From Candidatus Nomurabacteria bacterium (lineage in GTDB: Bacteria > Patescibacteriota > Minisyncoccia > Phycocordibacterales > UBA9973), in the NCBI GenBank assembly GCA_016699365.1, contig CP064973.1:639916-703915 (forward strand): a stretch of 64,000 bases of DNA. Reading direction: 5' to 3'. How positions within the stretch are numbered: position 1 is the stretch's first letter; each line of letters starts with the position of its first letter. Shown piece after piece: positions 8,031 through 49,033 of this stretch. Position numbers and translations under genes: made by a program. The notes beneath the pieces are model-generated. The model was not told the origin of the DNA and ran no database searches. It saw only the letters and a program-made list of their open reading frames with translations.

Positions 8031-9973
<1,943 letters not shown>

Positions 9974-33586: not shown

Positions 33587-33669
33587 GAAAAAAGTATAGC
33601 AAAAATAGTACTTTTCTATTAATTGACATGCTAATTAAAAAATAGTACTTTGAAATCAAACGCACCTTT

Positions 33670-34614
33670 ATGAAAATAAAAAATAACCCAATTTACTCTG
33701 GTATCTATGGCGAGATGATGGGACGTCCATTTGAATTCGCATATTTTTATGTTGAAAAAGTGATCAACCCTCTAAACGACAAAGATATCGATCCTGAAAA
33801 GTACTCCTTGCTTCTGCCGATTTTACGTACAGGTATGTATGAAAAAATACATGCAGGTGTAGAAAAATACTTTCCAAAAAAATTGAAGGGACTCGAAGAA
33901 TTTGTATATGGGAAAAAAATGTCACACTTTTTCACAGATGACACAGTACTCACTGTAGCAACTATGGACGCACTACTGGAAGACAATGAAAATCCAGATT
34001 TCCAAAAATTCTATTTGAAATGGGCACGTGCCTATCCGAATACTGGATATGGAAGAGTGTTCCGTGAATGGATTGAGAGCAACGACCCAAAGCCATACGG
34101 AAGTCTTGGTAACGGTGGAGCGATGAGAGTTTCTCCTGTAGCTTTTATATCAAACGATATTCTTGATGTTGAAAGACTCGCAGAATTATCTGCAAGAGTA
34201 ACGCACGACCACCCCGAAGGAATCGACGGTGCGATCGCTGTAGCCGGAGCAGTCTTTTTAGCAAAAAGACAATTTGGGAAAAAATATATTCACAAATACA
34301 TATCCGGATTCCCAAACTACAACATGCAAAGAAAATTGAGTGACATTCGTAAAAATTACAATTTTTATTCAGAAGCACTAAAAAGTGTCCCTGAATCAAT
34401 AATCTGTTTTTACGAAGCAAGGTCTTCAAAGGAGGCTATATCCAACGCGCTTTCACTAGCCGGTGACACAGACACCATGGCAATGATCGCCGGAGTACTT
34501 GCTGGAACTTACTACAAAGATACCGAAGATCATATGGTGGGCTTCTGTAGAATGAGACTTCCAGAAGAAATGTTATATATAATTGATGAATTTGAAGAAA
34601 AATTCATCCGATAA
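33670..34614 (+). CDS. ADP-ribosylglycohydrolase family protein
   Basis: FTDDT, GNGGAMRVSPVA, GDTDTMAMIAG di-metal site motifs. Confidence 0.75.
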   Translation: MKIKNNPIYSGIYGEMMGRPFEFAYFYVEKVINPLNDKDIDPEKYSLLLPILRTGMYEKIHAGVEKYFPKKLKGLEEFVYGKKMSHFFTDDTVLTVATMDALLEDNENPDFQKFYLKWARAYPNTGYGRVFREWIESNDPKPYGSLGNGGAMRVSPVAFISNDILDVERLAELSARVTHDHPEGIDGAIAVAGAVFLAKRQFGKKYIHKYISGFPNYNMQRKLSDIRKNYNFYSEALKSVPESIICFYEARSSKEAISNALSLAGDTDTMAMIAGVLAGTYYKDTEDHMVGFCRMRLPEEMLYIIDEFEEKFIR

Positions 34615-34638
34615 AAAAAATCTGCCCTATGGGCAGAT
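34605..34638. terminator. bidirectional intrinsic terminator (AAATCTGCCC-TAT-GGGCAGATTT)
   Basis: Between convergent genes. Confidence 0.6.
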
Positions 34639-35610
34639 TTATTTTTTTAGTAAAGCAACAAGTTCATCCGAAATTTTCTTTACAGACTTCTCATCAAAAA
34701 GAGTCACAGTGTAAATCGGTTTTTTAAGTTTTGTAAATTCTTTTATCTTTGCTTTCAATTCTTTCTCATCGATTGCGTCAGTTTTTGTAAGAATTATTAT
34801 CTCATCTTTTGTAGACAATCCCTCGCCATAAGCTTCAAGCTCACTACGAACTTGCTTATAAGCTTTCATCATGTTCATTCCGTTCTCACAAGAAACCAAG
34901 TGTGCAAGTATTTTTGTGCGTTTTATGTGACGCAAGAATTTTATTCCTACACCCTTACCTTCGTGTGCACCTTCTATAAGACCAGGAATATCAGCGATGA
35001 TATATCCATATAAATCTCCCAAGTTTGGGTCAAGTGTTGTAAAAGCATAATCACCGACTTTTGCTTTTGCATTTGTAATTGCATTTAAAAGACTAGACTT
35101 ACCGGCATTTGGTAATCCTATAAAACCAATATCAGCAAGTATCTCTACTACTACTTTAAATTTTGATTTCTCTCCTGCTTTACCTGGCGTAGCTTTTTCT
35201 GGAGTTGTGTTACGAGAACTTTTAAATTGTTCATTTCCTCTTCCTCCTGGACCACCCTTCAAAATCTTTTCTACTTGTCCTTCTTCTGTGAGCTCTATCT
35301 CAAGACCTGTTCCAAGATTTGTAATTTTAGTTCCTACTGGGAAATCAAAGATGAAATCTTTTCCATCTGCTCCGTGTTTTTTGCCACCCATACCAGCCTC
35401 ACCTGGAGAAGCTTTATAAACCTTTTCGGCAACATATTTCGATAGTGCATCCAAATCACGTATTGCACGTACATATACATCTCCACCAGCACCACCATCA
35501 CCTCCAGATGGACCGCCTTTTGGAATAAATTTTTCCCGGCGCCATCGAACAACACCGTTTCCACCACGGCCTGCTTCTGCAGATATTATCATTTCATCAA
35601 TAAATCTCAT
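34639..35610 (-). CDS. obg: GTPase Obg
   Basis: Gly-rich Obg fold GGNGVVRWRREKFIPKGGPSGGDGGAGGDVYV, G1 GLPNAGKSSL. Confidence 0.9.
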   Translation of the reverse strand: MRFIDEMIISAEAGRGGNGVVRWRREKFIPKGGPSGGDGGAGGDVYVRAIRDLDALSKYVAEKVYKASPGEAGMGGKKHGADGKDFIFDFPVGTKITNLGTGLEIELTEEGQVEKILKGGPGGRGNEQFKSSRNTTPEKATPGKAGEKSKFKVVVEILADIGFIGLPNAGKSSLLNAITNAKAKVGDYAFTTLDPNLGDLYGYIIADIPGLIEGAHEGKGVGIKFLRHIKRTKILAHLVSCENGMNMMKAYKQVRSELEAYGEGLSTKDEIIILTKTDAIDEKELKAKIKEFTKLKKPIYTVTLFDEKSVKKISDELVALLKK

Positions 35611-35619
35611 GTTTTTTTA

Positions 35620-35967
35620 TTAGTTAATTTCTTTTTTCTTGCCCTCTAATATGTCTATATGATCTTGTAATTCTCGAGAATTTAATATCGATATGTTGTA
35701 CATATAATCTCCTTTGTGATCTGGGAAACTAGATCTCATATACGATGCAAAACCTTGTCCGTATATTTTGTTTATTTGATCTACTGTAACCCTTACTCCA
35801 GACTCATATTTATTCGTCAAAACAAACTTTTCCTTAAGCTCTGGGTAAATACTTTCAATCCTTGTGAGAGTATTCTTCAGTTTATCAACTTCACTAAGTT
35901 CCCTTTCATTTCTAGGTGGAATTTGTGGAATATCCTTATTTTGATGCTTAAATATGTCTAGTTGCAT
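35620..35967 (-). CDS. hypothetical protein (115 aa)
   Basis: ORF track only. Confidence 0.4.
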   Translation of the reverse strand: MQLDIFKHQNKDIPQIPPRNERELSEVDKLKNTLTRIESIYPELKEKFVLTNKYESGVRVTVDQINKIYGQGFASYMRSSFPDHKGDYMYNISILNSRELQDHIDILEGKKKEIN

Positions 35968-35974
35968 AATTACC

Positions 35975-36865
35975 CTACATTTTATTCGCTTCTAAAGCAA
36001 GCTGGGCTAGAGCCAGGGCCCCGTCTTTGGTTTTTGCGACACAGAAAAATCTTTTGTTATGACAAAACATCGCCCCCTCAACTCCAGTAACTTTTTCCAA
36101 TTCTTCATTGACGAGCCCTGCCCATTCTACGGGGAAATATATCCGACTTTCAAATTGTCTAAACGCAGCTGGCACCATCTCAGTACCCCAGCTTTTATCT
36201 TGTCTCGGGTATACAACAATTAACGAATCTTCATATTCAGTCAAAACTTTTTTCCATGGAAGATATTGTGGTAACTCAACAATCCGTTTATCTGAAGTAT
36301 TCTTGTATATATCTCGCACTAGCTCCTGTGCTTCAATCAGATCTTTTGTCTTTTTTATAATTCGATCTAGCACAACTCGTGCATATGATACCAATTTAAC
36401 AAATTCAGCATCAACATCTATCACCTCTTTCCAACTCGGAAGAAAGAGTGAATATAAATTATGAAAATCAAAAGGTAAAGCATCTTCTCGAGTTGTTTTA
36501 TAAAGCTCTACTCCATTATCAGGAGCGTCGATCGCTTGCACAAGCTGTTTGTCTACAGCACCTGCAACTTCCCTGCTTCCACAAAGCTTCTCTCCATACT
36601 TTTTCCATACAAGCCCAAACGATGCATACGGAATTCCATTTTCTCTGATACCCGCTCCACCTTTCTGATGATGATCGAATCTCTCTATACCCTCATCATA
36701 CACACCTCCTACATCCACAACAAAATCTGCGCTTTTTATTATCTCCTCATCTCGAGTTCTAACTATCTTTATTTTCTCATCCGGAAAACTTGCGAGTATT
36801 GTTGCACACGCAAAAATATCATCAGCGTGAAAAGTTCCATTGTGTGCAAGTAAAATCTTCTCCAT
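35975..36865 (-). CDS. MYG1/UPF0160 family metal-dependent hydrolase
   Basis: LLAHNGTFHADDIFACA...DHHQKG matches the MYG1 signature (recalled from human MYG1 THNGTFHCDE). Start reset to MEKILLAHNG. Confidence 0.65.
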   Translation of the reverse strand: MEKILLAHNGTFHADDIFACATILASFPDEKIKIVRTRDEEIIKSADFVVDVGGVYDEGIERFDHHQKGGAGIRENGIPYASFGLVWKKYGEKLCGSREVAGAVDKQLVQAIDAPDNGVELYKTTREDALPFDFHNLYSLFLPSWKEVIDVDAEFVKLVSYARVVLDRIIKKTKDLIEAQELVRDIYKNTSDKRIVELPQYLPWKKVLTEYEDSLIVVYPRQDKSWGTEMVPAAFRQFESRIYFPVEWAGLVNEELEKVTGVEGAMFCHNKRFFCVAKTKDGALALAQLALEANKM

Positions 36866-36866
36866 A

Positions 36867-37211
36867 TTAATCTCTATCACCAAGCACCTTATCTCCGATC
36901 CAACTAAGTATAGATACAATGAGCGCTCCGATTATTGCTGCTGTAAAATTGTCTATATTGAATCCGTCTATAAGTGTTGCTACAAACCAGAAAAACAATC
37001 CGTTCAATATAATTGAGAAAAGACCAAGTGTTAAAATATTTATAGGCAAGGTAAGTATTTTTACTACCGGTTTTACAATCAAATTTATAAAACCAAGTAC
37101 CGCACCAACTATTATTGCAGTAAGCAATGTATCAACATGTATTCCGTCGACGACATAAGGTACAGCTAAAACCGCAAGTGTGATTATGAGCCAATGAGCT
37201 AAAATTTTCAT
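36867..37211 (-). CDS. DUF360/holin-like (YvlD-type) membrane protein
   Basis: 114 aa, 3-4 TM, pattern from memory. Confidence 0.45.
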   Translation of the reverse strand: MKILAHWLIITLAVLAVPYVVDGIHVDTLLTAIIVGAVLGFINLIVKPVVKILTLPINILTLGLFSIILNGLFFWFVATLIDGFNIDNFTAAIIGALIVSILSWIGDKVLGDRD

Positions 37212-37224
37212 ATTGTTTAAAAAA

Positions 37225-37683
37225 TTAAATAAATAATGAATCGACTACATTTTTTACATCTCCTCCGTCTGCCTTACCCTTAAGCTCTTTCATAAGCTCA
37301 GACATAAGCATTCCTTTTTTTGTTGCATCGGTGATACCAAGAGATTCTTTTTTTGCGCGAGCAATATTTTCAATTTCAGATTTTTCCATCATCTTTGGTA
37401 AATACACTTCAAGTATAGCAAGTTGAGCTTCTTCTTCTTTTACCAAGTCTTCCCTTCCTCCATTTTTAAATTGCTCAATAGAGTCTTTGCGCTGTTTTGC
37501 GAGTCTTGTAATAACTGCGATTACTTCTTCGTCAGTGAGTGCATCTTGTGGAGTACGTCCTTTTGAAACAAGTTCATTTGTCATAGCGGCACTGATACCT
37601 CGGAGCACTTCAAGCCTCACTGCTTCTTTTGCAAGCATCGCTTCTTTTATACTTTCTTTTATTTTTTGTTGAAGGTTTTGCAT
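37225..37683 (-). CDS. GatB/YqeY domain protein
   Basis: 152 aa, all-helical, YqeY-like (EVYLPKMM..., LMKELKGKADG). Confidence 0.65.
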   Translation of the reverse strand: MQNLQQKIKESIKEAMLAKEAVRLEVLRGISAAMTNELVSKGRTPQDALTDEEVIAVITRLAKQRKDSIEQFKNGGREDLVKEEEAQLAILEVYLPKMMEKSEIENIARAKKESLGITDATKKGMLMSELMKELKGKADGGDVKNVVDSLFI

Positions 37684-37719
37684 CTTTTAACTATATCAAA
37701 TCATGGTAGAATCTACTAT

Positions 37720-38442
37720 ATGCAATACAAACTTCTATTTTTAGATACAGAAACAACTGGCAACGAAGCAAAAGACCGACTTTGCCAGGTTGCTTATAGT
37801 GATGGAAAAAATCGTATCGAGGCGCTCTTCAAGCCCCCAGTTCCTATATCTATAGAATCCATGGCCGTCCACCACATAACTCCAAAGATGGTTCTAGATA
37901 AGCCGGCTTTCAAATTTAGTGAGGAGCATGCATTTCTCGCTAAAAAATTCAAAGAAGAAGAAACTATCGTAGTCGCCCACAATGCAATATTTGACCTAGA
38001 AATGCTCGCCAAAGAGGATTTGATTCCTGATAAATTTATTTGCACACTTCGCGTAGCTAGATATTTAGACCCAGAAGAAAAAATCCCTTCATATAGACTT
38101 CAATATCTACGCTACTTTTTAGATATTGAAATTGAAGCAACTGCACATGATGCGCTTGGAGATGTACTCGTGCTAGAAAAATTGTTTGAAAGATTGTTTC
38201 GCAAGATTGCCGATAGCGAGGAACTAACCGAATCTCAAACATATGAAAAGATGATTGAAATTTCTAAAACACCTTCACTTATAAGAACTTTCAGATTTGG
38301 AAAATATAACGGACAAAAAGTAGAAGAAGTGGCAAAGATTGATCGCGGATATCTAGAATGGATGCTCGCCCAAAAATCTGCAGTAGATAGTGGCGAAGAA
38401 GATTGGATCTACACCTTGAATCACTTTTTAGGTAAAAATTAA
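37720..38442 (+). CDS. DEDDh 3'-5' exonuclease (DnaQ-like) fused to DUF3820-like C-terminal domain
   Basis: Exo I LFLDTETTG, Exo II VVAHNAIFDL, Exo III HDALGD, C-terminal FRFGKYNGQKVEEVAKIDRGYLEWM. Start reset to MQYKLLF. Confidence 0.7.
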   Translation: MQYKLLFLDTETTGNEAKDRLCQVAYSDGKNRIEALFKPPVPISIESMAVHHITPKMVLDKPAFKFSEEHAFLAKKFKEEETIVVAHNAIFDLEMLAKEDLIPDKFICTLRVARYLDPEEKIPSYRLQYLRYFLDIEIEATAHDALGDVLVLEKLFERLFRKIADSEELTESQTYEKMIEISKTPSLIRTFRFGKYNGQKVEEVAKIDRGYLEWMLAQKSAVDSGEEDWIYTLNHFLGKN

Positions 38443-38476
38443 AACGACCACCAGGGGTCGTTTTTGAATTTCTTGA

Positions 38477-38785
38477 TTAATCACCACAGCCACAGTCGAA
38501 GAATGCAGTTGTATTTTCTTCTTCTTGTGACGTGCATTGGTAGACCGATATTTGTGGTTTCGGCGTACTTCGGATGCCGAAAAAAATAGCTCCCAAAACC
38601 ACTAAGATAACGATCATATAAGCAAGCCTATGAATAGGTCTGCGGCTACTTTGAAATGGGGAAATAAATTTACCCCACACCATCTTAAACCAAGAGGCTT
38701 TTGCCAAAACAAATGCGGCAATAATGAATGTAAATGGTATTGCCATTACAACCAGTCCTGCGGCAGTACACGATGAAATTTGCAT
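38477..38785 (-). CDS. hypothetical membrane protein with C-terminal CxxxxxxxxxxxxxxxCGCGD tail
   Basis: ORF track, 2 TM. Confidence 0.35.
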   Translation of the reverse strand: MQISSCTAAGLVVMAIPFTFIIAAFVLAKASWFKMVWGKFISPFQSSRRPIHRLAYMIVILVVLGAIFFGIRSTPKPQISVYQCTSQEEENTTAFFDCGCGD

Positions 38786-38868
38786 AGATCTTTATTTTTT
38801 ATAATTATACTTAAATATAAATAAATGTCAATAAAACAAAATCCCCCATCTGAGTGAGGGATTTTAAA

Positions 38869-39174
38869 TTATTTTTTATTTTTTATTTTTTTTAGGATTC
38901 TGTGTCTTAGGTCCTGATCGAACCATCGCAGCCATTCTGGCATATCATATCTATCCTCCCAGTTCATCGCTTTAAAAATCCGACGAACTATAAGTAGTAT
39001 AAATATCAAAATCGCAACTCCGTGAGACACGTTCTCCCCGGCTGTCATAAAGACCAAAAAACGACTAGTGAACTCAGCCCATATAAATGGTATTCCTAAG
39101 AAATGAAATAAAAAAACAGGTATTGAAATGATGTCGTAGAAGAACTCTAGAACGCTTTGTATGTATTTATTCAT
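38869..39174 (-). CDS. hypothetical membrane protein (101 aa)
   Basis: ORF track. The terminator hairpin AAAATCCC...GGGATTTT lies at 38837-38864. Confidence 0.35.
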   Translation of the reverse strand: MNKYIQSVLEFFYDIISIPVFLFHFLGIPFIWAEFTSRFLVFMTAGENVSHGVAILIFILLIVRRIFKAMNWEDRYDMPEWLRWFDQDLRHRILKKIKNKK

Positions 39175-39259
39175 AGTGTGAACATTTGTATGACAATACC
39201 ATTATATACAGATTGCGTCAAATGCAGCTAATCTCATAAATGTTTGTTATAATTTACAA

Positions 39260-40312
39260 ATGCAAAATATAACTTTCGGAATCATTGGGGCAATAGTAGC
39301 CGGGCTTCTAGTCTACTTTCTAACTCGAAATAAAAAAGATAACTCAAGTATAACCAACGACAAAAGTCTGGGGCTGTTGTTGCAACAAATGAACGAACTT
39401 ACTCGCACAGTAGACGCAAAACTCGGTGAATCTCAAAAGCATGTTTCCGAATCTATGCGTTTCCAGTCTACAGAGACTTCACGTATCATCGCCGACATAA
39501 CAGAGCGTCTAACTCGACTCGACGAAACAAACAAACAGGTTGTATCTTTTACTGACCAACTCCAGAGCTTGCAAGATATTTTAAAAAATCCAAAACAACG
39601 TGGAATACTAGGCGAATACTATCTAGAAACACTTTTGAAAAATGTAATGCCCCCAGGATCCTACCAGATGCAATATCCTTTTTCTGACGGGACGATTGTA
39701 GACGCAGCTGTTTTTGTAAAAGACAAAATTATTCCAATCGATTCAAAATTCTCTCTTGAAAACTATAACCGAATATCAGAAACAAATGATCCAAACGAGA
39801 AAGAGCGCTTAGAGAAAGTTTTTACAAACGACCTAAAGAATCGTATCGTAGAAACCTCAAAGTACATACAACCAGAAAATGGAACTATGGAATTTGCTTT
39901 TATGTTTATACCTCATGAAGCGATCTACTATGATTTGATAGTAAACAAAATCGGAGCAATTACTGAAGACACGGAAAATCTTATTCAACGTGCTGCAAGT
40001 AAATACAAAGTAATTATAGTTTCACCTACTTCATTCCTTGCATACTTGCAGACTGTTCTACAAGGATTAAAAGCAATGCAAATAGAAGAAAGCGCAAAGG
40101 ATATAGTAAAACGTGTAGGAGAACTCGGTAAACATTTAAAATCTTATGAAGATTTTCACAATAAACTTGGGAACGCTCTCGGCACAACAATCAATCATTA
40201 CAACAACGCCGGAAAAGAACTCAAGAAAGTAGACAAAGATATTTTGCGCATTACTGGAATGCAAAATGAAATTGAACCCGTGTTGTTAGAAAAACTAGAT
40301 AAAGAAGAATAA
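39260..40312 (+). CDS. rmuC: DNA recombination protein RmuC
   Basis: N-terminal TM, long coiled coil, C-terminal RmuC nuclease-like domain. Confidence 0.75.
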   Translation: MQNITFGIIGAIVAGLLVYFLTRNKKDNSSITNDKSLGLLLQQMNELTRTVDAKLGESQKHVSESMRFQSTETSRIIADITERLTRLDETNKQVVSFTDQLQSLQDILKNPKQRGILGEYYLETLLKNVMPPGSYQMQYPFSDGTIVDAAVFVKDKIIPIDSKFSLENYNRISETNDPNEKERLEKVFTNDLKNRIVETSKYIQPENGTMEFAFMFIPHEAIYYDLIVNKIGAITEDTENLIQRAASKYKVIIVSPTSFLAYLQTVLQGLKAMQIEESAKDIVKRVGELGKHLKSYEDFHNKLGNALGTTINHYNNAGKELKKVDKDILRITGMQNEIEPVLLEKLDKEE

Positions 40313-40920
40313 TGGAAGTTATAATTGGAACAATAGCCGGCGCAAGCGCACTTGCCGGATTAAAAAAAGTTTTCGACCGAGCTCCGAAACGTAAAATCCC
40401 AGAGAGTGGAATTGTTTCCCCTGCTTCAGGAAAAGTAATTGAAATTGTAGATATAGATCCGACAAAATTTGAATTTGTAAAAAAGAAAATAAAGAATTCT
40501 GTCTCACTTCCTGGGCTTGGCACAAGCGCTAAAATGATTGTAATAGAAATGAATATCCGCGATGTCCACGTCCAGCGCGCACCAATCGAAGGAGTAGTCA
40601 CCTACTCAAAACATTTTTCTGGAAAACACAAAAATGTAATCCACAGCAAAGGCAAAAAAGATTCTGTATACATAAACGAAAAACAAATCACTGTTATAAA
40701 AGGTAGAGATTTTTCGACTTGTGTAATCCAAGTTGCTGGCTTTGTAGCCAGACGTATAAGATCTCGAGTTCATATAAATCAATTCGTAAAAAAAGGTGCA
40801 GTCATCGGTAAAATCTCTTTCGGATCTCAGACAATACTTATATTACCTAATACACTAAATATAAAAATCCGTATAGGCGACAGAGTTACAGACGGAGAAA
40901 CTCTAATAACACAAAATTAA
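40312..40920 (+). CDS. phosphatidylserine decarboxylase-related protein (short archaeal-type)
   Basis: SPASGKV, HVQRAP, FGSQTILIL (candidate GS self-cleavage site). Confidence 0.55.
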   Translation: MEVIIGTIAGASALAGLKKVFDRAPKRKIPESGIVSPASGKVIEIVDIDPTKFEFVKKKIKNSVSLPGLGTSAKMIVIEMNIRDVHVQRAPIEGVVTYSKHFSGKHKNVIHSKGKKDSVYINEKQITVIKGRDFSTCVIQVAGFVARRIRSRVHINQFVKKGAVIGKISFGSQTILILPNTLNIKIRIGDRVTDGETLITQN

Positions 40921-40946
40921 AACCGCTCGATTGAGCGGTTTGCTTT

Positions 40947-41765
40947 TTATATATTTAAAATAAATTTGCATTGCCTGATAACTTCTATTGGACCGTGGTT
41001 GCGTTCAATAAAATATCTCACTGCATCATAAACATATCTTTCGTGACCTGCATGAAGAGCAAGTCCTTCTGATACAGGAATCCAGCTAACACTTTCAACT
41101 TCACTTTTATCAAGACCGTAAAAGGTGTCGATAAATTTATCCTTCGGAAGAAAGGCAAAGAATACGGTTGTCTCAATCCATGCGTTATCGGTATTCCGAT
41201 AATCATCGGAATATTTCCTATACATTCTCTTCACAAGACGCTGGTCGAAATTTTTAAATTGAGGAACCTCTTCGCCAAGCTCACGTAGAGCGGCTGTGAC
41301 TTTTGACTCACCTTTGTCTACCATTCCACCTACAACAGCATTCATACCGTTGTCTGCGCGTTTGATTGCTAAAAAACAAAGCAAGCCAGTTCTTGGATGA
41401 ACTGTAACCATGACAATATCCACTGCACGATTGGCTCCCCATTGATACAAAAGCCCTCTACCTCTAATACCTGTTCTTCCACAAGGATTAAGGGGTCGAC
41501 CTTCTATATCGTGAGCTATCCTATGGATAACTTTACTAAATCTCTGGTTGATATTTTTATAAGCATCCTCGGCTTCAATTTCTCCAGCCATGCTCTTTTT
41601 AAGAACAGAATCATGCACAAAATATGGAGGATCGTACTCAGGCCAATCAATAGCCCAGCACCCTTTATCTTCTGGAACGAAAAACCTTTCTGGATAACTA
41701 TCCGGCTTTTTTGTTCTAGCAATATTATGAACCTTTTTTAATATCTCTAAATTTCTTCTTGGCAT
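40947..41765 (-). CDS. NUDT9-like ADP-ribose pyrophosphatase (Nudix)
   Basis: NPCGRTGIRGRGLLYQWGANRAVDIVM matches NUDT9 [26 protein letters not shown] (memory). Nudix box GGMVDKGESKVTAALRELGEEV. Start reset to MPRRN. Confidence 0.65.
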   Translation of the reverse strand: MPRRNLEILKKVHNIARTKKPDSYPERFFVPEDKGCWAIDWPEYDPPYFVHDSVLKKSMAGEIEAEDAYKNINQRFSKVIHRIAHDIEGRPLNPCGRTGIRGRGLLYQWGANRAVDIVMVTVHPRTGLLCFLAIKRADNGMNAVVGGMVDKGESKVTAALRELGEEVPQFKNFDQRLVKRMYRKYSDDYRNTDNAWIETTVFFAFLPKDKFIDTFYGLDKSEVESVSWIPVSEGLALHAGHERYVYDAVRYFIERNHGPIEVIRQCKFILNI

Positions 41766-41774
41766 ATTATGAAT

Positions 41775-41803
41775 TTGACAAAGTATACAATATTTCGTAC
41801 AAT
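41775..41803 (+). promoter_or_regulatory. sigma70-like promoter for nadE (TTGACA-17-TACAAT)
   Basis: Read directly. Confidence 0.5.
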
Positions 41804-41841
41804 ATATCAAGACCTGAGGTCATTTTAAATTATTTCCTCAG

Positions 41842-41862
41842 ATAGTGTACTTTATACTCTAA
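41842..41862. promoter_or_regulatory. candidate NrtR operator A: ATAGTGTACTTTATACTCTAA (palindromic arms TAGTGTA/TACTCTA, GT-N7-AC core)
   Basis: Read directly. Lies 19 bp upstream of the nadE ATG in the divergent region shared with the NUDT9-like gene. 16/21 identical to site B. Confidence 0.45.
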
Positions 41863-41880
41863 ATACTATATACTAAAGAT

Positions 41881-43857
41881 ATGAAAAAAGCAAAACTAAC
41901 ACCAAGAGAACTAGGATTTGTAAGAGTTGGCGCAGCCGTTCCCTCTTTAAAAATTGGGGATATCTCCCACAACTTAGACGAGCTAGAAAAGCTCGCCAAG
42001 GCAAGTTTCCAAAATGGATCATCTATCACTGTATTCCCTGAGCTTTGTATCACCGGATACACGGTCGGTGACCTGTTTCAGCAAAAAATCATGATTCAAA
42101 AATCCCTTGAAGGTCTTTTTGACTTAGCAGGTAGAACTGGAAACCTATCAGGGGTTTTCATTGTAGGCCTACCTATCGAATATCAGGGTGCGCTATATAA
42201 CTGCGCAGCTCTAATAGGAGGAGGTGAAGTTCTCGGTATTGTGCCAAAAAGCTACTTACCAAACTACAGTGAATTTTATGAAAAAAGATGGTTCACAGAA
42301 GGCATTCATGTTCCAAAAGGTGCAACTATCAAGAAAAATTATTTGGGACAAGAAATTCCATTTGGAACAGACATTATCTTTGAAGACAGGGACAACAAAA
42401 ATCTCGTTCTTGGAATCGAAATCTGTGAAGACGTGTGGACAGTGATCAAGCCAAGCTCAAAATTAGCACTGGCTGGAGCGACTATTCTTGCAAATCTTTC
42501 AGCATCAAACGAAATTGTAGGCAAGGTCACTTATAGAAGAGACCTTGTGCGACAACAGTCAGCTGATACGATAAGTGCTTATGTTTACACTTCATCTGGC
42601 CCAGGCGAATCAAGTACTGATTTAGTTTTCTCGGGTCATGCAATAATCGCTGAAAACGGTTCGATACTTTCTGAAAACGAACGCTTCAAATTCGATAGTC
42701 AAATTGTCTATGCTGATATCGATATTGATTTGATAGCGATGAATCGCAGACGAAATATTAGTTTTGGTGAGTCGAAACGTGAAATCAATCCTGAAAACTT
42801 TAGAACTGTAATCGTAAACATGAATTGTTATTACGAAAAGTTCAAAACGCTCGGACGAAATATCACAAAGACACCATTTGTTCCTACAGACGAAAAGACT
42901 CGTTTTGAAATCACGGAAGAGATTTTCCAAATCCAAGCGACAGCGCTCGCGACTAGAATGCGCAATTCAAACATCCACAAACTCATCTTGGGTCTGTCAG
43001 GTGGACTGGATTCTACACTCTCTATGCTTGTGGCTATAAGATCCTTGGAGATCCTTGGTCTACCAAAAGAGAATCTGACACTGATTACGATGCCAGGATT
43101 TGGTACAACAAAAAAGACCAAGACTAACGCCGAAAAACTTGCAGAAGCTTTCGGAATAAAACTCGAAAGCATAAGTATCGAAAATGGGTCAAAAATTCAG
43201 TTAAGAGATGTAGGACATGATGGCGAAAAACAAAATGTAACGTTTGAAAATGTACAGGCTCGCTATCGCATGATGACCTTGCAAGATATCGCAAACGAAC
43301 GCGGTGGGCTTGTACTCGGAACCGGTGACTTATCAGAACTTGCACTTGGATGGTGTACATTTGGTGGAGACCACACTGTTACATACAATGTGAACGGTGG
43401 AGTTCCAAAAACACTTGTTCAGCATGTCGTACGATATGCAGGCAAAGTTTACGGTGGATCTATTGAAGAAGTTTTGAATGAAATCCTTGGCACACCGATA
43501 TCGCCAGAGCTTTTACGTGGAGACAAAGATAACCCAACGCAGAAGACAGAGGATGTTGTCGGGCCTTATGAATTGCACGATTTCTTCTTGTTTCATTTTT
43601 TACGTCGCGGAGAGAATCCATCAAAAATTCTTTACCTAGCAAAATATGCTTTTGGTGAAGAGTATGAGACAGAAACAATCCGTAAATGGTTGGGGGAATT
43701 CTTGAAAAGATTTTTTTCTCAACAATTCAAGCGCTCAATCATCCCAGACGGACCAAAAGTTGGATCGGTAACACTATCATCACGCGGAGACTGGCGCATG
43801 CCATCTGATGCTAGCGCCAAAATGTGGATAGAAGAATTGAATAATGTTATTATTTAA
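41881..43857 (+). CDS. nadE: glutamine-dependent NAD+ synthetase
   Basis: N-terminal CN-hydrolase domain, C-terminal PP-loop GLSGGLDSTL, 658 aa. Confidence 0.9.
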   Translation: MKKAKLTPRELGFVRVGAAVPSLKIGDISHNLDELEKLAKASFQNGSSITVFPELCITGYTVGDLFQQKIMIQKSLEGLFDLAGRTGNLSGVFIVGLPIEYQGALYNCAALIGGGEVLGIVPKSYLPNYSEFYEKRWFTEGIHVPKGATIKKNYLGQEIPFGTDIIFEDRDNKNLVLGIEICEDVWTVIKPSSKLALAGATILANLSASNEIVGKVTYRRDLVRQQSADTISAYVYTSSGPGESSTDLVFSGHAIIAENGSILSENERFKFDSQIVYADIDIDLIAMNRRRNISFGESKREINPENFRTVIVNMNCYYEKFKTLGRNITKTPFVPTDEKTRFEITEEIFQIQATALATRMRNSNIHKLILGLSGGLDSTLSMLVAIRSLEILGLPKENLTLITMPGFGTTKKTKTNAEKLAEAFGIKLESISIENGSKIQLRDVGHDGEKQNVTFENVQARYRMMTLQDIANERGGLVLGTGDLSELALGWCTFGGDHTVTYNVNGGVPKTLVQHVVRYAGKVYGGSIEEVLNEILGTPISPELLRGDKDNPTQKTEDVVGPYELHDFFLFHFLRRGENPSKILYLAKYAFGEEYETETIRKWLGEFLKRFFSQQFKRSIIPDGPKVGSVTLSSRGDWRMPSDASAKMWIEELNNVII

Positions 43858-43860
43858 GAT

Positions 43861-44541
43861 ATGAAATTCGATACATCAAAACTTCTAAATCCGTGGGTAT
43901 CTGTAGACGTAGTTGTCTTCACTTTGGAAAACAACGAACTCAAAGTACTTCTTACAAAACGCGCTAGTGATCCATTTATGGGATCATGGGCTCTTCCTGG
44001 TGGATTCCTGTTAAAAGGAGAAACTACAGAAATTGCTGCACGTCGAGTACTCAAGCAAAAAGCTGGGGTTAGTAGTGATGTATATTTAGAACAACTTTAT
44101 ACTTTTGATACACCGGGACGCGATCCGCGCGCTCCGGTGTTTTCTATTACTTATTTTGCTCTTGTGCCTATCGAAGATATCAAATTTGCAAAAACAGACA
44201 AAACTGAGAGCCCAGAATTCATATCTATAAACCATCTACCTCGCTTAGCTTTTGATCATAAAGATATTGTGAATTACTCAATTAAACGTCTGCAAGCAAA
44301 GATTCAATACACGAACGCTGCATATTCTATACTTCCAAAACTTTTTACTTTCTCTCAATTACAAAAAGTTTATGAAGCGATACTAGAACGCGCTATAGAC
44401 AAAAGAAACTTCCGTAAAAAATTCATGCAACTTGGTCTGATCAAAGAAACCAAGAAAATGCTTCGCGGCGGCAAGCAGCGTCCTGCAAAACTATATGAAT
44501 TTATCTCACACAAACCAGCTGAGCTAAAAAAGTTTTTCTAG
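43861..44541 (+). CDS. nrtR: Nudix-related transcriptional regulator NrtR (degenerate Nudix box + C-terminal winged helix)
   Basis: Nudix fold with non-catalytic box GGFLLKGETTEIAARRVLKQKAGV (REUxEE replaced by RVLKQK). The C-terminal FTFSQLQKVYEAILERAIDKRNFRKKFMQLGLIKET...RPAKLYEF matches the NrtR DNA-binding domain pattern (memory). Embedded in NAD genes. Confidence 0.7.
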   Translation: MKFDTSKLLNPWVSVDVVVFTLENNELKVLLTKRASDPFMGSWALPGGFLLKGETTEIAARRVLKQKAGVSSDVYLEQLYTFDTPGRDPRAPVFSITYFALVPIEDIKFAKTDKTESPEFISINHLPRLAFDHKDIVNYSIKRLQAKIQYTNAAYSILPKLFTFSQLQKVYEAILERAIDKRNFRKKFMQLGLIKETKKMLRGGKQRPAKLYEFISHKPAELKKFF

Positions 44542-45107
44542 GAATATAAATTTTTACTAACTATATACTCATAGACACCGTCGGCAATACTGTCAGGTTT
44601 TTCTCCTTTTTTAATTTTTTCACGTATCAGGGTTGCAGACATCGAACCGACAGGTTCTATCTCGGTACAAGAAATCTTAGCTAGAATTTCCCCATCTATA
44701 TTTCCATCACGTCCGACAACATAAAAGTGGTGCGAAAGTATCTCATCTGCAAATTCCCAAGTTGGAATAGAATTTACAACATCGGTACCTGTAATAATCG
44801 AGAACTTGTGATCAGAGTATTTTTTATGAAGATGCCTGAGTGTTTGAAATGTATATGACGGGGTCGGCAAATCAAATTCAACCCTAGACACAAATACGCT
44901 ATCTAGGTCATTTACCGCAAGCTCTACCATCTGTGCACGATCTTCACTAGGAGCAAGCGAGTTTGCGGGTTTGTCTGGATTTATTGGAGACACAACAACC
45001 CAGATTTCATCTGGAGAATTTTCATGATTTCTGACCTTTTGAATTACTTTTTTATGGTCGTCATGAATCGGGTTAAAAGATCCAAAGTATAGAGCTATGT
45101 GTTTCAT
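44538..45107 (-). CDS. nadD: nicotinate-nucleotide adenylyltransferase
   Basis: GSFNPIHDDH (GxFxPxHxxH), 189 aa. Confidence 0.8.
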   Translation of the reverse strand: MKHIALYFGSFNPIHDDHKKVIQKVRNHENSPDEIWVVVSPINPDKPANSLAPSEDRAQMVELAVNDLDSVFVSRVEFDLPTPSYTFQTLRHLHKKYSDHKFSIITGTDVVNSIPTWEFADEILSHHFYVVGRDGNIDGEILAKISCTEIEPVGSMSATLIREKIKKGEKPDSIADGVYEYIVSKNLYS

Positions 45108-45195
45108 ATGGTGGATTATATCAAAATTTATAAAGCTTTCTCTTTGACAAAATGACCTAAATATGATAGAATACTGTTAGATATGTGCACTTGTT

Positions 45196-45212
45196 GCACT
45201 TTTAAAAAGTGC
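45196..45212. promoter_or_regulatory. 17-bp perfect palindrome GCACTTTT-A-AAAAGTGC in nadD/pncA divergent region
   Basis: Read directly. Shares the CACTTT/AAAGTG half-sites with the prs-upstream palindrome. Confidence 0.4.
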
Positions 45213-45217
45213 ATGAT

Positions 45218-45238
45218 ATAGTGTATATAATACATTAA
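45218..45238. promoter_or_regulatory. candidate NrtR operator B: ATAGTGTATATAATACATTAA (GT-N7-AC core)
   Basis: Read directly. 21 bp upstream of the pncA ATG, and downstream of the predicted pncA promoter TTGACA(45144)-17-TAGAAT. Confidence 0.45.
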
Positions 45239-45258
45239 GTAAATTAAAAAACAAATAT

Positions 45259-45861
45259 ATGAAAGAAGCTAAAAAAGCACTCTTAATCATAGATGTGCAA
45301 AACGATTTTTGTCCTGGAGGCTCACTTGCTGTCACTGATGGTGATCGTGTGGTAGAACCATTGAACAACATGATCAAGCTTGCCCGCGAAAACGGCTGGC
45401 TTGTCATCGCCTCTCGTGACTGGCACCCAAAAGATACTGCCCACTTCAAAGAATTCGGCGGTATCTGGCCCGCACATTGTATCGAAGGTACTGGTGGAGC
45501 AAAGTTCAAACATGGACTTCTTTTTCCAGAAAAAACAGTAATCATCAATAAAGGTACTTCTAAAAAAGATGATGGTTACTCCCCTTTTGAAGGAACCGAT
45601 ACTGTACTTGATTTACCCCTTGCTCAAATTTTAAACATCAAGGGTATTACCGATATATTTATCGGAGGCCTTGCAACAGACTATTGCGTAAAAGCAGGAG
45701 TTCTGGATGCATTAAAAAATGGTTATGGTGTGTATCTTTTAGAAGATGCCATCAAAGCCGTAAATCTTAAACCCGATGATGGCGCAAATGCAATTGCAGA
45801 AATGCAAAATGCCGGTGCAATCATCACAACAACAACGGAGGTAATCAATGAAAAACGATAA
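45259..45861 (+). CDS. pncA: nicotinamidase / isochorismatase-family hydrolase
   Basis: LLIIDVQNDFCPGGSL, catalytic Cys in GGLATDYCV. Confidence 0.85.
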   Translation: MKEAKKALLIIDVQNDFCPGGSLAVTDGDRVVEPLNNMIKLARENGWLVIASRDWHPKDTAHFKEFGGIWPAHCIEGTGGAKFKHGLLFPEKTVIINKGTSKKDDGYSPFEGTDTVLDLPLAQILNIKGITDIFIGGLATDYCVKAGVLDALKNGYGVYLLEDAIKAVNLKPDDGANAIAEMQNAGAIITTTTEVINEKR

Positions 45862-47141
45862 CTTTAATTTCCATCGTCTCGATGAAGAGACTATGGAAGG
45901 CAATATTGTTGAGTCAGTACTCGACGATGACTTCTACAAATTCTCGATGGGCCAGTTTATCTGGGATCATCCTGAATTGAAAGAAACAGAAGTTGAGTGG
46001 CACTTCAACAATCGGACAAAATCGATACAGCTGGGCAATATTATTTCCGAAAAAGATTTCTTTGATCAAATCGAAGGGATTAAAAATTTCGGGATCGATA
46101 GTTCAGGGTTTCGTTTCTTGCGAGGGCTTGAAATCTACGGAGACAAAATGTTTTCCGATGATTATCTAAATTTCCTCAAAGGAATTAAATTCCCGGAAAT
46201 TAGTTTCGGAAGAACCGATGAAGGCCAGCTTGATATAAAGTGGAAAGATACATGGAACACTTCTATGCATGCAGAAATGCCAATACTACGTATTGTTAGT
46301 GGTCTGTATGTTCGAGCTCAACTCAAAAACAAGAGCAAGCTCGAACGCGAAGCATTCTATGCCGAAGGAATCAAAAGACTTGCGCTAAAAGTAGCAAGGT
46401 TGAAAGAACACAAAAATGTTGTGTTCTCAGATTTTGCAAACCGCAGAACACCTTCGCCAATACTTCATGAATACATGGTAGTAAGAGCCGCTGAAGAACT
46501 CGGCAAACAGTTCAAAGGAACTTCCAAAACGAGTCTTGCGATGAAGCACGGACTTGACCCTATTGGAACTTGGGGCCCATGAGCTTGCAATGATTATCAC
46601 AGCACTTCGTTTTGATGGCAGCCGCCAATCAATCGAGCAAGCTCAGATAGAGTTGCATACAAAATGGCTCAACCAGTTCGGTGAGGGTATCGCCCTGTCA
46701 CTGCCAGACACATACGGCACACAGTTCACACTGGATACACTGCCAGATGAAATCGTGAGCAAACTAAAAGGTTTCAGGATTGATTCTGAAGATCCGTTTG
46801 TATCGATCCCGAGATTTCAAGAGAGATTCGTCAGAGCCGGTATCGATTACAAAAACAAATTATTCGTGCCGAGTGATGAACTCAATCTCGACAAGATGAT
46901 CGCCATCAGTGATGCGTTCGGCGCATCGAGTATGATTAGTCACGGCTGGGGTGGAGGATTTGGAAACGACTTTGGTTTCAATAAAGTTTCAATTATCTGT
47001 AAACCATATTCGGCAAATGGAAAGTTTTGCGTAAAACTCTCCGACAATGTCGAAAAGGCAATCGGTGAATACGGAACTGTTAAAAAATACAAAGAAGCGC
47101 TCAACTACAAAGGCGAGTATGCAAAAGTTTGTATTTCATAA
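45848..47141 (+). pseudogene. pncB: nicotinate phosphoribosyltransferase with +1 frameshift in G4 run (46572-46575)
   Basis: ORF 45848-46582 (DFYKFSM at the N-terminus) and ORF 46554-47141 (FRIDSEDP, GWGGGF) are consecutive PncB segments. Removing one G restores ...DPIGTWAHELAMI, matching the PncB GTxAHSW motif. Confidence 0.65.
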
Positions 47142-47147
47142 GTTCAC

Positions 47148-47172
47148 AAAGGCGGGAAAATTCCCGCCTTTT
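47148..47172 (+). terminator. intrinsic terminator (AAAGGCGGGAA-AA-TTCCCGCCTTTT)
   Basis: After the pncB stop. Confidence 0.6.
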
Positions 47173-47196
47173 ATTATTAATGTATAATCAATCTAT

Positions 47197-48039
47197 ATGA
47201 CACACAAATTCGATAGAGTAGCTATTTTCTACAGACCCGACATCTCTGGCGGCAGCACATGGGAGAAGAAAATCATATCAAAACTAAAATCTTTAAATAA
47301 AAAAATTGAAATCGGGTCTAAGCGTCCGAAGGTGGTTATTGCTCTAGGTGGAGATGGAACAATCATGGAAGCCATCCGCAATTTTAAACACTTCTCCCCT
47401 CTTTTTATAGGACTGAACTTGGGCCACGTCGGATTCCTCGCGACTATTCGCGAGAAGAAAAATTTTCTAAAAGGCATCGAAAAAATATACAAAGGTGAAT
47501 ATACAGTTTCAGAGCGAATGATGCTCCACGTCGGAGTCGTACGTAAAGGCAAAGAGATCTACGAGACCCAAGCTCTCGGCGATATGTATATTCAAAACCT
47601 CACAGGACTTCTCGATCTCGATATCCATATCGATGAGCATCTAGTTCAGCGTGTTCATGGAACAGGTGCTATAGCAAGCACCGCGAGTGGTTCTACGGCC
47701 TACAACTTGTCACTACATGGTCCGATAGTTATGCCAGATATAAACTGTATCGTAGTGAACGAAATCCTCGATCACAACACTCCGACACCTTCTATGATTA
47801 TCAAGAAAACTAAACGTGTTTCTTTCCATATTAAAAATTTCCGCCGACGCAACGAAGTACTGCTCGCAAAAGATGGCCTAGATATTGACGTAGGTATGTG
47901 GACCGATGGAGTGCTCGTCATGCGCCTGCTTCCAGGCGACATAGTCCATGTAGCGCGCGCTCGCGGGAAAATAAAACTCGCCGAGATAGAAAAAGATTAT
48001 TTCTTCAAAAGTATCCAACAAAAATTCACATTCAAATAG
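47197..48039 (+). CDS. nadK: NAD kinase
   Basis: VIALGGDGTIMEA (GGDG), NE/D motif region, 280 aa. Confidence 0.85.
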   Translation: MTHKFDRVAIFYRPDISGGSTWEKKIISKLKSLNKKIEIGSKRPKVVIALGGDGTIMEAIRNFKHFSPLFIGLNLGHVGFLATIREKKNFLKGIEKIYKGEYTVSERMMLHVGVVRKGKEIYETQALGDMYIQNLTGLLDLDIHIDEHLVQRVHGTGAIASTASGSTAYNLSLHGPIVMPDINCIVVNEILDHNTPTPSMIIKKTKRVSFHIKNFRRRNEVLLAKDGLDIDVGMWTDGVLVMRLLPGDIVHVARARGKIKLAEIEKDYFFKSIQQKFTFK

Positions 48040-48042
48040 TAG

Positions 48043-48070
48043 AAAAGGCGGACAATTGTCCGCCTTTTTG
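48043..48070. terminator. bidirectional terminator (AAAAGGCGGACA-AT-TGTCCGCCTTTTT)
   Basis: Between convergent genes. Confidence 0.6.
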
Positions 48071-49033
48071 TTATTTAATTTTTTCAACATTCTCACCAGC
48101 TTTTTCTTTACTGGTAATATATGTGAAATGAAATTCTTTTGCCACTTCCGGCATTACTACCATACCTTCACATTCTGCCAATGCTTGTTTGCAATGCCTG
48201 AAAAATATTGGCATATAATTTTTTGGAAGATTAAGCATAGCAATCATTGATCGTACGTTTTTCAACACATTCATCTCGTAACGCTCCTGGCGCAATCCGA
48301 TTACACTAAAAGAAATATAGTCTTCCAGTATCCGCTCATACTCGAGCACAGGTAAAGTTAAGCGCTCTTCGGAATACGATCTGTTTATTGTTGGTAGATT
48401 TTCATACCAGAGCTTGCACCAAGCCGCATTGTTTTTACGAAACTTGCGCAAATAACCTAAAACCTTATCTGCGTCTGGATGCTGATTCATAAGACCAATA
48501 ACGTTATCTTCCGGCGCACTTAAGATAATCCTCTGTCGAAAGTCGAGCATTTCATTCGCAGTAGGCTTTTTATGACGACCAGCAAACCTAAGGAGATCGT
48601 ACATGATTGTGTAATCGAGAGATTTTTCACGCATCTCCGGAATCCGGTAATAAGTGAATATCTCGGTCTCGTTTGACGCAACCCATTCGTTTACATTCAT
48701 GATTTCAGCAAATGACTCAAAGGTCATATTGGCCCGCGGTGAAAGCGGATTGCGGAAAAGCATGTGAGTAAAGTCGTGAGCAAAATACATATCACGCACG
48801 AAATCATTTTTATAGTAATCTCCTCTGTCCAGCACAAAATTGAAGTACTGGGTGAAATGAGAAAATTCTTCAGGGGTCGATTGTTCGAAGAATATCGGCG
48901 CCCGGTTATCGATCACAAATTGAATCAAACCTTTATAGAAAGGATTTGATTTAAATTCGCGTGTACGAAATACATGCGAGAAAATATAGTTTTCATACTC
49001 CTCGACCGTATCAAAGATTTTAAAGTTTTTCAT
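48071..49033 (-). CDS. hypothetical protein (320 aa)
   Basis: Intact ORF, no recognisable motif. Confidence 0.45.
   Translation of the reverse strand: MKNFKIFDTVEEYENYIFSHVFRTREFKSNPFYKGLIQFVIDNRAPIFFEQSTPEEFSHFTQYFNFVLDRGDYYKNDFVRDMYFAHDFTHMLFRNPLSPRANMTFESFAEIMNVNEWVASNETEIFTYYRIPEMREKSLDYTIMYDLLRFAGRHKKPTANEMLDFRQRIILSAPEDNVIGLMNQHPDADKVLGYLRKFRKNNAAWCKLWYENLPTINRSYSEERLTLPVLEYERILEDYISFSVIGLRQERYEMNVLKNVRSMIAMLNLPKNYMPIFFRHCKQALAECEGMVVMPEVAKEFHFTYITSKEKAGENVEKIK

Follow-up and report, generated by a model that had tools for sequence, protein, structure and literature searches.

The 64,000-nucleotide stretch of DNA analysed here, referred to as the window, is from Candidatus Nomurabacteria bacterium (GCA_016699365.1, contig CP064973.1, positions 639,916 to 703,915 of the forward strand). 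It contains genes for the salvage of nicotinamide adenine dinucleotide (NAD) as well as a gene for NrtR, a Nudix-related regulator. Two 21-mers are located before the nadE-nrtR and pncA-pncB genes. As far as can be read from the DNA, these are very probably genuine sites at which the NrtR repressor encoded in the same region binds. It appears likely that a non-catalytic NrtR represses both gene pairs at these two predicted operators and is released from them by ADP-ribose.

Predicted operators before nadE-nrtR and pncA-pncB

Operator 1 (41842-41862, ATAGTGTACTTTATACTCTAA) is found before nadE (41881-43857, + strand), the first gene of the nadE-nrtR operon, with 18 nt between its end and the ATG. 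Operator 2 (45218-45238, ATAGTGTATATAATACATTAA) is found before pncA (45259-45861, + strand), with 20 nt between its end and the ATG. No strand is assigned to either. A preliminary description of this DNA had reported two 21-mers at these positions that share 16 of 21 nucleotides and the pattern GT-N7-AC, and both coordinates and sequences were correct when checked. In both operators, nucleotides 6-7 are GT and nucleotides 15-16 are AC, so that GT-N7-AC is exactly centred. GTGT is present in the left half of each. Both are imperfect palindromes as read from the sequence, with 6/10 complementary symmetric pairs in operator 1 and 7/10 in operator 2. The same description took the core as typical for NrtR, and this agrees with the 21-bp palindrome described for most NrtR groups, which has a GT-N7-AC core and lies over the promoter or between the promoter and the start codon (Rodionov et al., 2008; PMC2330246). 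A degenerate 21-mer covering both operators, with three or fewer mismatches allowed, has two matches in the 64 kb, just operators 1 and 2, compared with 0.07 expected. None of 100 shuffles gave two matches.

Both operators are preceded by good -35/-10 promoters, as had been proposed. The predicted sigma-70-type promoter of nadE-nrtR (41775-41803, + strand) is TTGACA-17-TACAAT, and that of pncA-pncB (45144-45172, + strand) is TTGACA-17-TAGAAT with a TG before the -10 element. Each matches the consensus at 11/12 positions, and each is conserved in the two closest relatives, L001 and L002. Promoter matches of at least 11/12 occur five times in the whole window on both strands, and these are two of them. 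Operators 1 and 2 start 38 and 45 nt past the predicted -10 elements, at about +32 to +52 and +39 to +59 relative to the predicted transcription starts. A position between the -10 element and the start codon fits repression downstream of the transcription start, as a repressor bound there would block transcription. NrtR is predicted to bind physically at the operators, presumably in a roadblock mode of repression.

The motif was explored in 77 loci that encode NrtR relatives. Twelve of these (L003-L014) are distant, with 35-47% protein identity and GC contents of 37-63%, and are from Gammaproteobacteria, Verrucomicrobiota, Planctomycetota, Paceibacterota, and Bacteroidota. In a forward test, a position weight matrix (PWM) was built from operators 1 and 2 only. 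The best match of the whole 6-13 kb locus was located 36-151 bp upstream of nrtR in 9/12 distant loci. For example, TTAGTGTATTTTTTACACTAA scored 30.1 bits in a Luteolibacter locus with 63% GC. In a reverse test, a PWM was built from twelve of the distant sites only (consensus TTAGTGTATTAAATACACTAA) and applied to the 64-kb window. Operator 2 was ranked first with 20.3 bits and operator 1 second with 16.9 bits, and the third match reached 7.9 bits. Random Markov-chain sequences of the window's composition gave a best score of 11.8 +/- 2.5 on average with this matrix. The motif-bearing distant loci are all NAD-linked.

The closest relatives, L001 and L002, have an NrtR that is 94% identical and about 79% DNA identity over the syntenic region. 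They are metagenome-assembled genomes (MAGs) labelled Candidatus Paceibacterota and Candidatus Saccharibacteria in a species-representative genome collection. Both operators are retained in them, with substitutions confined to the central spacer, and operator 2 is identical in L002. Six further assemblies encode an identical NrtR protein at about 97% DNA identity. Operator 1 is identical in 6 same-species assemblies, and operator 2 is also identical in same-species assemblies. The preliminary description had let its proposal depend on whether related genomes also have the motif in front of their NAD genes. It is kept in L001 and L002 and it recurs in distant phyla. As in members of the NrtR family, therefore, the operators are found upstream of NAD genes and of nrtR and are conserved across related genomes.

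Several of these loci have gene orders of their own. The Luteolibacter MAG locus L009 (5947-12590) has a perfect-palindrome site followed by an apparent six-gene operon, nrtR-pncB-ARH-nadE-ARH-pncA, in which two ADP-ribosylglycohydrolase (ARH) genes are embedded among the NAD salvage genes. The order is nrtR-pncB-pncA-nadR-like in L010 and nrtR-nadA in L003 and L006. In L011, a phosphoribosyltransferase gene and pncA-nadE are each preceded by a site. In L058, from another member of the Patescibacteria, a site precedes genes for a phosphoribosyltransferase, a permease, and a pncA-like protein.

The predicted repressor, its candidate effector and alternative readings

The gene nrtR (43861-44541, + strand) encodes a protein of 226 aa with the family's architecture of an N-terminal Nudix domain (PF00293 NUDIX, residues 16-136, 1.5e-14) and a C-terminal winged helix (PF21906 NrtR_WHD, residues 155-214, 4.4e-24, 84.8 bits against a cutoff of 27). 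It aligns over its full length to the structures of AraR from Bacteroides thetaiotaomicron (BtAraR) and NrtR from Shewanella oneidensis (SoNrtR). The Nudix box, GFLLKGE-x7-RVLKQKAGV, was described earlier as degenerate, and indeed all three catalytic glutamates of REUxEE are replaced. An impaired Nudix signature is typical of non-catalytic NrtR members and is not universal. The box is lost in the window's lineage and in L011. The nearest NAD-type relatives (L003, L004, L006, L007, L009, and L010; 43-47% identity) retain R-E-x-x-E-E, and judging from this sequence they may still hydrolyse ADP-ribose. In the window's lineage, where the box of NrtR is lost, a separate NUDT9-type hydrolase gene adjoins the operator.

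The DNA-reading head can be compared with a crystal structure. In BtAraR bound to DNA, Lys179, Arg180, Asn181, and Lys184, together with Lys204 and Arg205 of the wing, "define the GTGT motif" (PMC4666351). The stretch DKRNFRK, residues 180-186 in the window NrtR, holds the equivalents of K179, R180, N181, and K184 and is identical in the two proteins. In the wing, the arginine corresponding to Arg205 is retained and Lys204 is replaced by Gln. Across the loci, proteins with DKRNFRK pair with GTGT-type sites, and betaproteobacterial relatives with NKVSFRR pair with another best motif.

The effector of the window NrtR is predicted to be ADP-ribose. According to PMC4666351, Arg98 of SoNrtR hydrogen-bonds ADP-ribose, and in BtAraR the residue there is Gly89 and the nucleotide cleft is closed. 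Arg90 of the window NrtR aligns with these two residues. In an alignment of 76 relatives, this column contains Arg in the window's lineage and in all NAD-linked loci except L008. It contains Gly in every Prevotella/Bacteroidales AraR-type protein and Val, Gln, Leu, or Ala in other groups of Bacteroidota. AraR-type and NrtR-type proteins alike have R34, R87, F131, and H133, so these residues do not tell the two types apart. The window NrtR differs from the Bacteroidetes AraR proteins in having Arg90 and not Gly, and in having NAD genes and not ara genes as neighbours. The NUDT9-type neighbour and the ADP-ribosylglycohydrolases in the Luteolibacter operon also point to ADP-ribose.

The proposed mechanism is as follows. 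An NrtR dimer would bind the two 21-bp imperfect palindromes (family consensus TTAGTGTA-N5-TACACTAA) through its winged helix, with DKRNFRK as the reading head. Sitting between a near-consensus promoter and the start codon, it would block transcription of pncA-pncB and of nadE-nrtR, the latter being autoregulated. When NAD is consumed, ADP-ribose could accumulate and bind in the degenerate Nudix pocket. NrtR would then leave the DNA, and the steps from nicotinamide to nicotinate to nicotinate mononucleotide (NaMN) and from nicotinate adenine dinucleotide (NaAD) to NAD would be induced. The neighbouring NUDT9-like hydrolase, with its intact Nudix box, could remove the ADP-ribose signal.

There are a number of points that weigh against this reading. 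A perfect TAGTGTA is present in one half of each operator, and the other half is TAGAGTA or TAATGTA (on the other strand), with one mismatch each. The promoters are consensus predictions, and promoters of this lineage are uncharacterised. A weaker promoter-like sequence, TTAAAA-18-TATAAT (45202-45231), overlaps operator 2, so that occlusion instead of a roadblock is possible at pncA. The intergenic regions of L001 and L002 are conserved overall (83-91%), and it is therefore the distant loci that carry discriminating weight. The forward test has a tail probability of about 2e-12 (binomial, uniform-position null), which is optimistic because the loci represent about five independent lineages and AT-rich motifs favour intergenic DNA; the probability is weaker than this figure and still small. 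The closest solved structure is that of an arabinose sensor, BtAraR (5BS6, E=4e-43), followed by SoNrtR (3GZ5, 1e-25). The NCBIfam model NF050029, an equivalog for ADP-ribose-responsive repressors, gave 166.2 bits (E=8.8e-49), below its 400-bit cutoff. The window NrtR is a family relative and not an equivalog of the NF050029 seed group.

The last two points also favour a reading in which the operators and the repressor are as proposed and the effector is something other than ADP-ribose, either NAD+ as a co-repressor or a smaller ribose-type ligand. NdnR of C. glutamicum, as cited in PMC4666351, is reported to be NAD-responsive, and the pocket residues R34, R87, F131, and H133 are common to both types of protein. 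However, Arg90, which corresponds to the diphosphate/ribose contact Arg98 of SoNrtR, is shared by the window NrtR with nearly all NAD-linked relatives and is Gly in all of the AraR-type proteins, pentose genes are absent nearby, and the ADP-ribose hydrolase gene is divergent from the operator, with ADP-ribosylglycohydrolases also present in the L009 operon. A different effector is thus considered rather unlikely. It is less likely still that the GTGCA/TGCAC elements at 45185-45213 are the true NrtR site at pncA or a part of it. These are the palindrome GTGCA-N5-TGCAC (45185-45199, no strand assigned), just downstream of the pncA promoter, and a perfect 19-bp palindrome that it overlaps, TGCACTTTTAAAAAGTGCA (45195-45213). 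Either could act alone or as a low-affinity operator that cooperates with operator 2. GTGCA-N5-TGCAC has the exact spacing of NrtR half-sites and differs from them by a symmetric T-to-C change. L001 and L002 keep its half-sites and vary in its spacer, and it is located at about +5 to +20, a classic position for repression. Tandem sites are known at L003 and at BtAraR targets. On the other side, the 21-mer at 45182-45202 reaches only 6.8 bits, below the random-sequence maximum, and the GT-N7-AC core of the family is broken in it. Neither the region before nadE nor any distant locus has an equivalent. The element may instead act as RNA, where a 5' hairpin that includes it is predicted (z = -2.75). 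It is the sole intergenic exact match in the window, and as a regulon-wide motif it was rejected, the only other exact match (10607) being inside a coding region. The preliminary description had named binding at the CACTTT/AAAGTG palindromes as an alternative. This was not supported. TGCACTTTTAAAAAGTGCA is unique in the window, but it has one arm mutated in L002 and is absent from the distant loci. Its half-site TGCACTT is not enriched in the window either (7 matches compared with 9.9 expected).

Finally, the 21-mers could have nothing to do with NrtR and resemble its sites by coincidence. They would then be conserved elements of the leaders or promoters, for instance sites of a different factor or translation signals that two AT-rich leaders have in common. 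The operators are indeed AT-rich, operator 2 contains TATAAT, and entire intergenic regions are conserved in the close relatives. The motif is nevertheless found again directly in front of nrtR in other phyla, in GC-rich genomes such as that of Luteolibacter, the reverse PWM selects exactly operators 1 and 2, and the residues of the reading head match the crystal-defined GTGT contact. This explanation is largely refuted by the forward and reverse PWM tests and is very improbable.

Reach of the predicted regulon and genes of the region

The preliminary description had placed the whole cluster under NrtR. This stands for nadE-nrtR and pncA-pncB, which are behind the operators and are the only directly supported members of the regulon, and not for the other genes. 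There are 3 nt between the nadE stop and the nrtR start, and nrtR is therefore predicted to be autoregulated through operator 1. The pncA-pncB unit is closed by a strong intrinsic terminator (47148-47171, + strand) with a 10-bp stem that contains 6 GC pairs and is followed by a T-tract. Downstream of this terminator, nadK (47197-48039, + strand) has its own TATAAT at 47183-47188, about 8 nt before the ATG, and no operator. It is a separate transcription unit outside the NrtR operators. The gene nadD (44538-45107, - strand) is divergent from pncA and has its own promoter. In the promoter scan, a TG-extended TATAAT ends about 8 nt before its ATG, at a distance of about 100 bp from operator 2. 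Direct control of nadD by NrtR is improbable. The short distance of about 8 nt from TATAAT to the start codon at both nadD (45107-45120) and nadK (47183-47199) suggests that these transcripts are leaderless or nearly so.

For the NUDT9-like gene (40947-41765, - strand), which is divergent from nadE, operator 1 lies upstream of the -35 element predicted among the minus-strand promoter candidates. The gene is a possible member of the regulon for which control is not indicated. The ADP-ribosylglycohydrolase gene (33670-34614, + strand) had been counted as part of the NAD cluster. Its identity was confirmed (PF03747 ADP_ribosyl_GH, 2.9e-31), and its place in the cluster was not. It is about 7 kb from the NAD genes and has no match of the distant-site PWM nearby. 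Ten non-NAD genes separate it from the NUDT9-like gene: obg, a MYG1-family gene, a holin-like gene, yqeY, an exonuclease gene, rmuC, psd, and three open reading frames (ORFs) without a Pfam match. It is functionally related and has no physical or regulatory link to the NAD genes here. No further operator above 7.9 bits was found near the ADP-ribosylglycohydrolase gene, near nadK, or elsewhere when the 64 kb were scanned with the distant-site PWM.

The leaders contain other elements. An inverted repeat, CCTGAGG-N16-CCTCAG (41814-41841), is present in the nadE leader, after the predicted transcription start and ahead of operator 1. Its arms are retained in L002 and the loop sequence is different there, and its fold alone is not significant (z = -1.3). 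A riboswitch or other known RNA element in the leaders was considered and rejected, as Rfam at the gathering threshold gave one tRNA in the entire window. Upstream of the ADP-ribosylglycohydrolase gene, two copies of a 14-nt exact direct repeat, AAAAATAGTACTTT, are present 37 bp apart (33601-33651) and flank a TTGACA. With two or fewer mismatches there are 8 matches to it in the window, compared with 2.2 expected. The repeat is not of the NrtR type.

Gene identities were obtained from profile searches (Pfam, NCBIfam, and TIGRFAM models) and PDB matches. All eight of the earlier assignments, which were ADP-ribosylglycohydrolase, NUDT9-like, nadE, nrtR, nadD, pncA, pncB, and nadK, were upheld by the profile searches. 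The nadE product is a glutamine-dependent NAD synthetase (NF002730, 834 bits; CN_hydrolase and NAD_synthase domains). NadD was identified with TIGR00482 (123 bits), the nicotinamidase PncA with its isochorismatase domain and NF008623 (173 bits), and NadK with NAD_kinase domains. The NUDT9-like protein is a putative ADP-ribose pyrophosphatase. Its top PDB match is human NUDT9 (1Q33, E=5.4e-31, residues 12-245), and its REUxEE box is intact, with RELGEE aligned to REFGEE of NUDT9. Both PF25969 NUDT9_N and PF00293 are found on the identical gene in other assemblies, where gene callers give 272 aa. The start of the gene is most likely the ATG at 41765 and not the TTG at 41810.

The gene pncB (45848-47141, + strand) encodes nicotinate phosphoribosyltransferase and overlaps pncA by 14 nt. 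It is present as two ORFs, the N- and C-terminal halves of the enzyme. What breaks it is an additional G in the run near 46572-46575, where the window has GGGG and not GGG. In L002 and in five same-species assemblies (about 97% DNA identity) the run is GGG and pncB is intact with 430 aa. Either the frameshift is a sequencing error in this homopolymer or pncB is a pseudogene peculiar to the strain. In the latter case, nicotinate salvage would be broken in this strain.

Other features of the region were observed. The genes nrtR (+) and nadD (-) are convergent, and their 3' ends overlap by 4 bp (44538-44541) with no terminator between them, so read-through transcripts would be mutually antisense. 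The gene nadK is missing from one same-species assembly, L079 (GCA_017991335.1), in which about 870 bp of the window (47250-48116) correspond to about 100 bp (8388-8489). The flanks align at 96-97%. Horizontal transfer of the region was considered and rejected, as there is no GC discontinuity (0.36-0.43 across 30-52 kb).

Comparison with known systems

A concrete regulatory circuit, consisting of a protein, two operators, and a candidate effector, can thus be proposed for a lineage with almost no described transcriptional regulation. The cofactor supply of this lineage is thought to be host-dependent. The complete route from nicotinamide to NADP is kept (pncA, pncB, nadD, nadE, and nadK), and part of it is predicted to be regulated. 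A literature search for NrtR or NAD salvage in combination with Patescibacteria found no paper combining these terms. It is also conceivable, and rather doubtful, that NAD salvage in this bacterium with a reduced genome is run by a compact module in which ADP-ribose gives the feedback and the tasks are divided. Hydrolysis would be left to the NUDT9-type enzyme, the effector would induce its own removal, and GTGCA-N5-TGCAC would serve as a graded second operator at pncA. The DNA-reading head that is identical in BtAraR would further mean that the arabinose regulators of Bacteroidetes descend from this NAD-type clade, having changed their effector (Arg90 to Gly) with unchanged DNA specificity.

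Each part of the circuit can be compared with a known system. The NUDT9-like protein, compared with human NUDT9 and the NUDT9-H domain of TRPM2, has the NUDT9_N and Nudix architecture and an intact REUxEE box. It differs in being bacterial and stand-alone, with 272 aa. SoNrtR (SO1979; PDB 3GZ5, 3GZ6, and 3GZ8), the ADP-ribose-responsive prototype, has the same two-domain architecture, and its Arg41, Arg98, and a His are the equivalents of R34, R90, and H133. It is a weaker match to the window NrtR than BtAraR is, and its target is prs-nadV and not pncAB or nadE. BtAraR (BT0354; PDB 5BS6 and 5DD4) shares the identical DKRNFRK, a 21-bp semi-palindromic operator with GTGT, and a degenerate Nudix box. 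However, its ligand is L-arabinose and its targets are ara genes. Gly89 and Lys204 of BtAraR are Arg (as in SoNrtR) and Gln in the window protein, and the context in the window is NAD and not pentose.

The NAD-type NrtR regulons are very similar to this circuit. Those tabulated by Rodionov et al. (Table 1; PMC2330246) include '#pncB-nrtR-pncA; #nadE' in Blastopirellula, '#nrtR-pncA; #pncB' in Roseiflexus, and '#nrtR1-draG' in Streptomyces. The window shares with them a Nudix-like sensor joined to a winged helix, a 21-bp GT-N7-AC operator that stands between promoter and start codon, targets in salvage I (pncA and pncB) and in the universal step (nadE), and predicted autoregulation through an operon with a target gene. 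It differs in that its host is from a MAG lineage labelled Patescibacteria/CPR, which is apparently not covered in that study, and in that the operon order is nadE-nrtR, with a NUDT9-type ADP-ribose hydrolase gene divergent from the operator. The nearest NAD-type relatives also have an intact Nudix box, unlike the window's lineage. The circuit extends a well-established type of regulon and leaves the understanding of NrtR unchanged. What goes beyond the textbook is the loss of the Nudix box together with a separate NUDT9-type hydrolase beside the operator, and a DNA-reading head that is shared with BtAraR.

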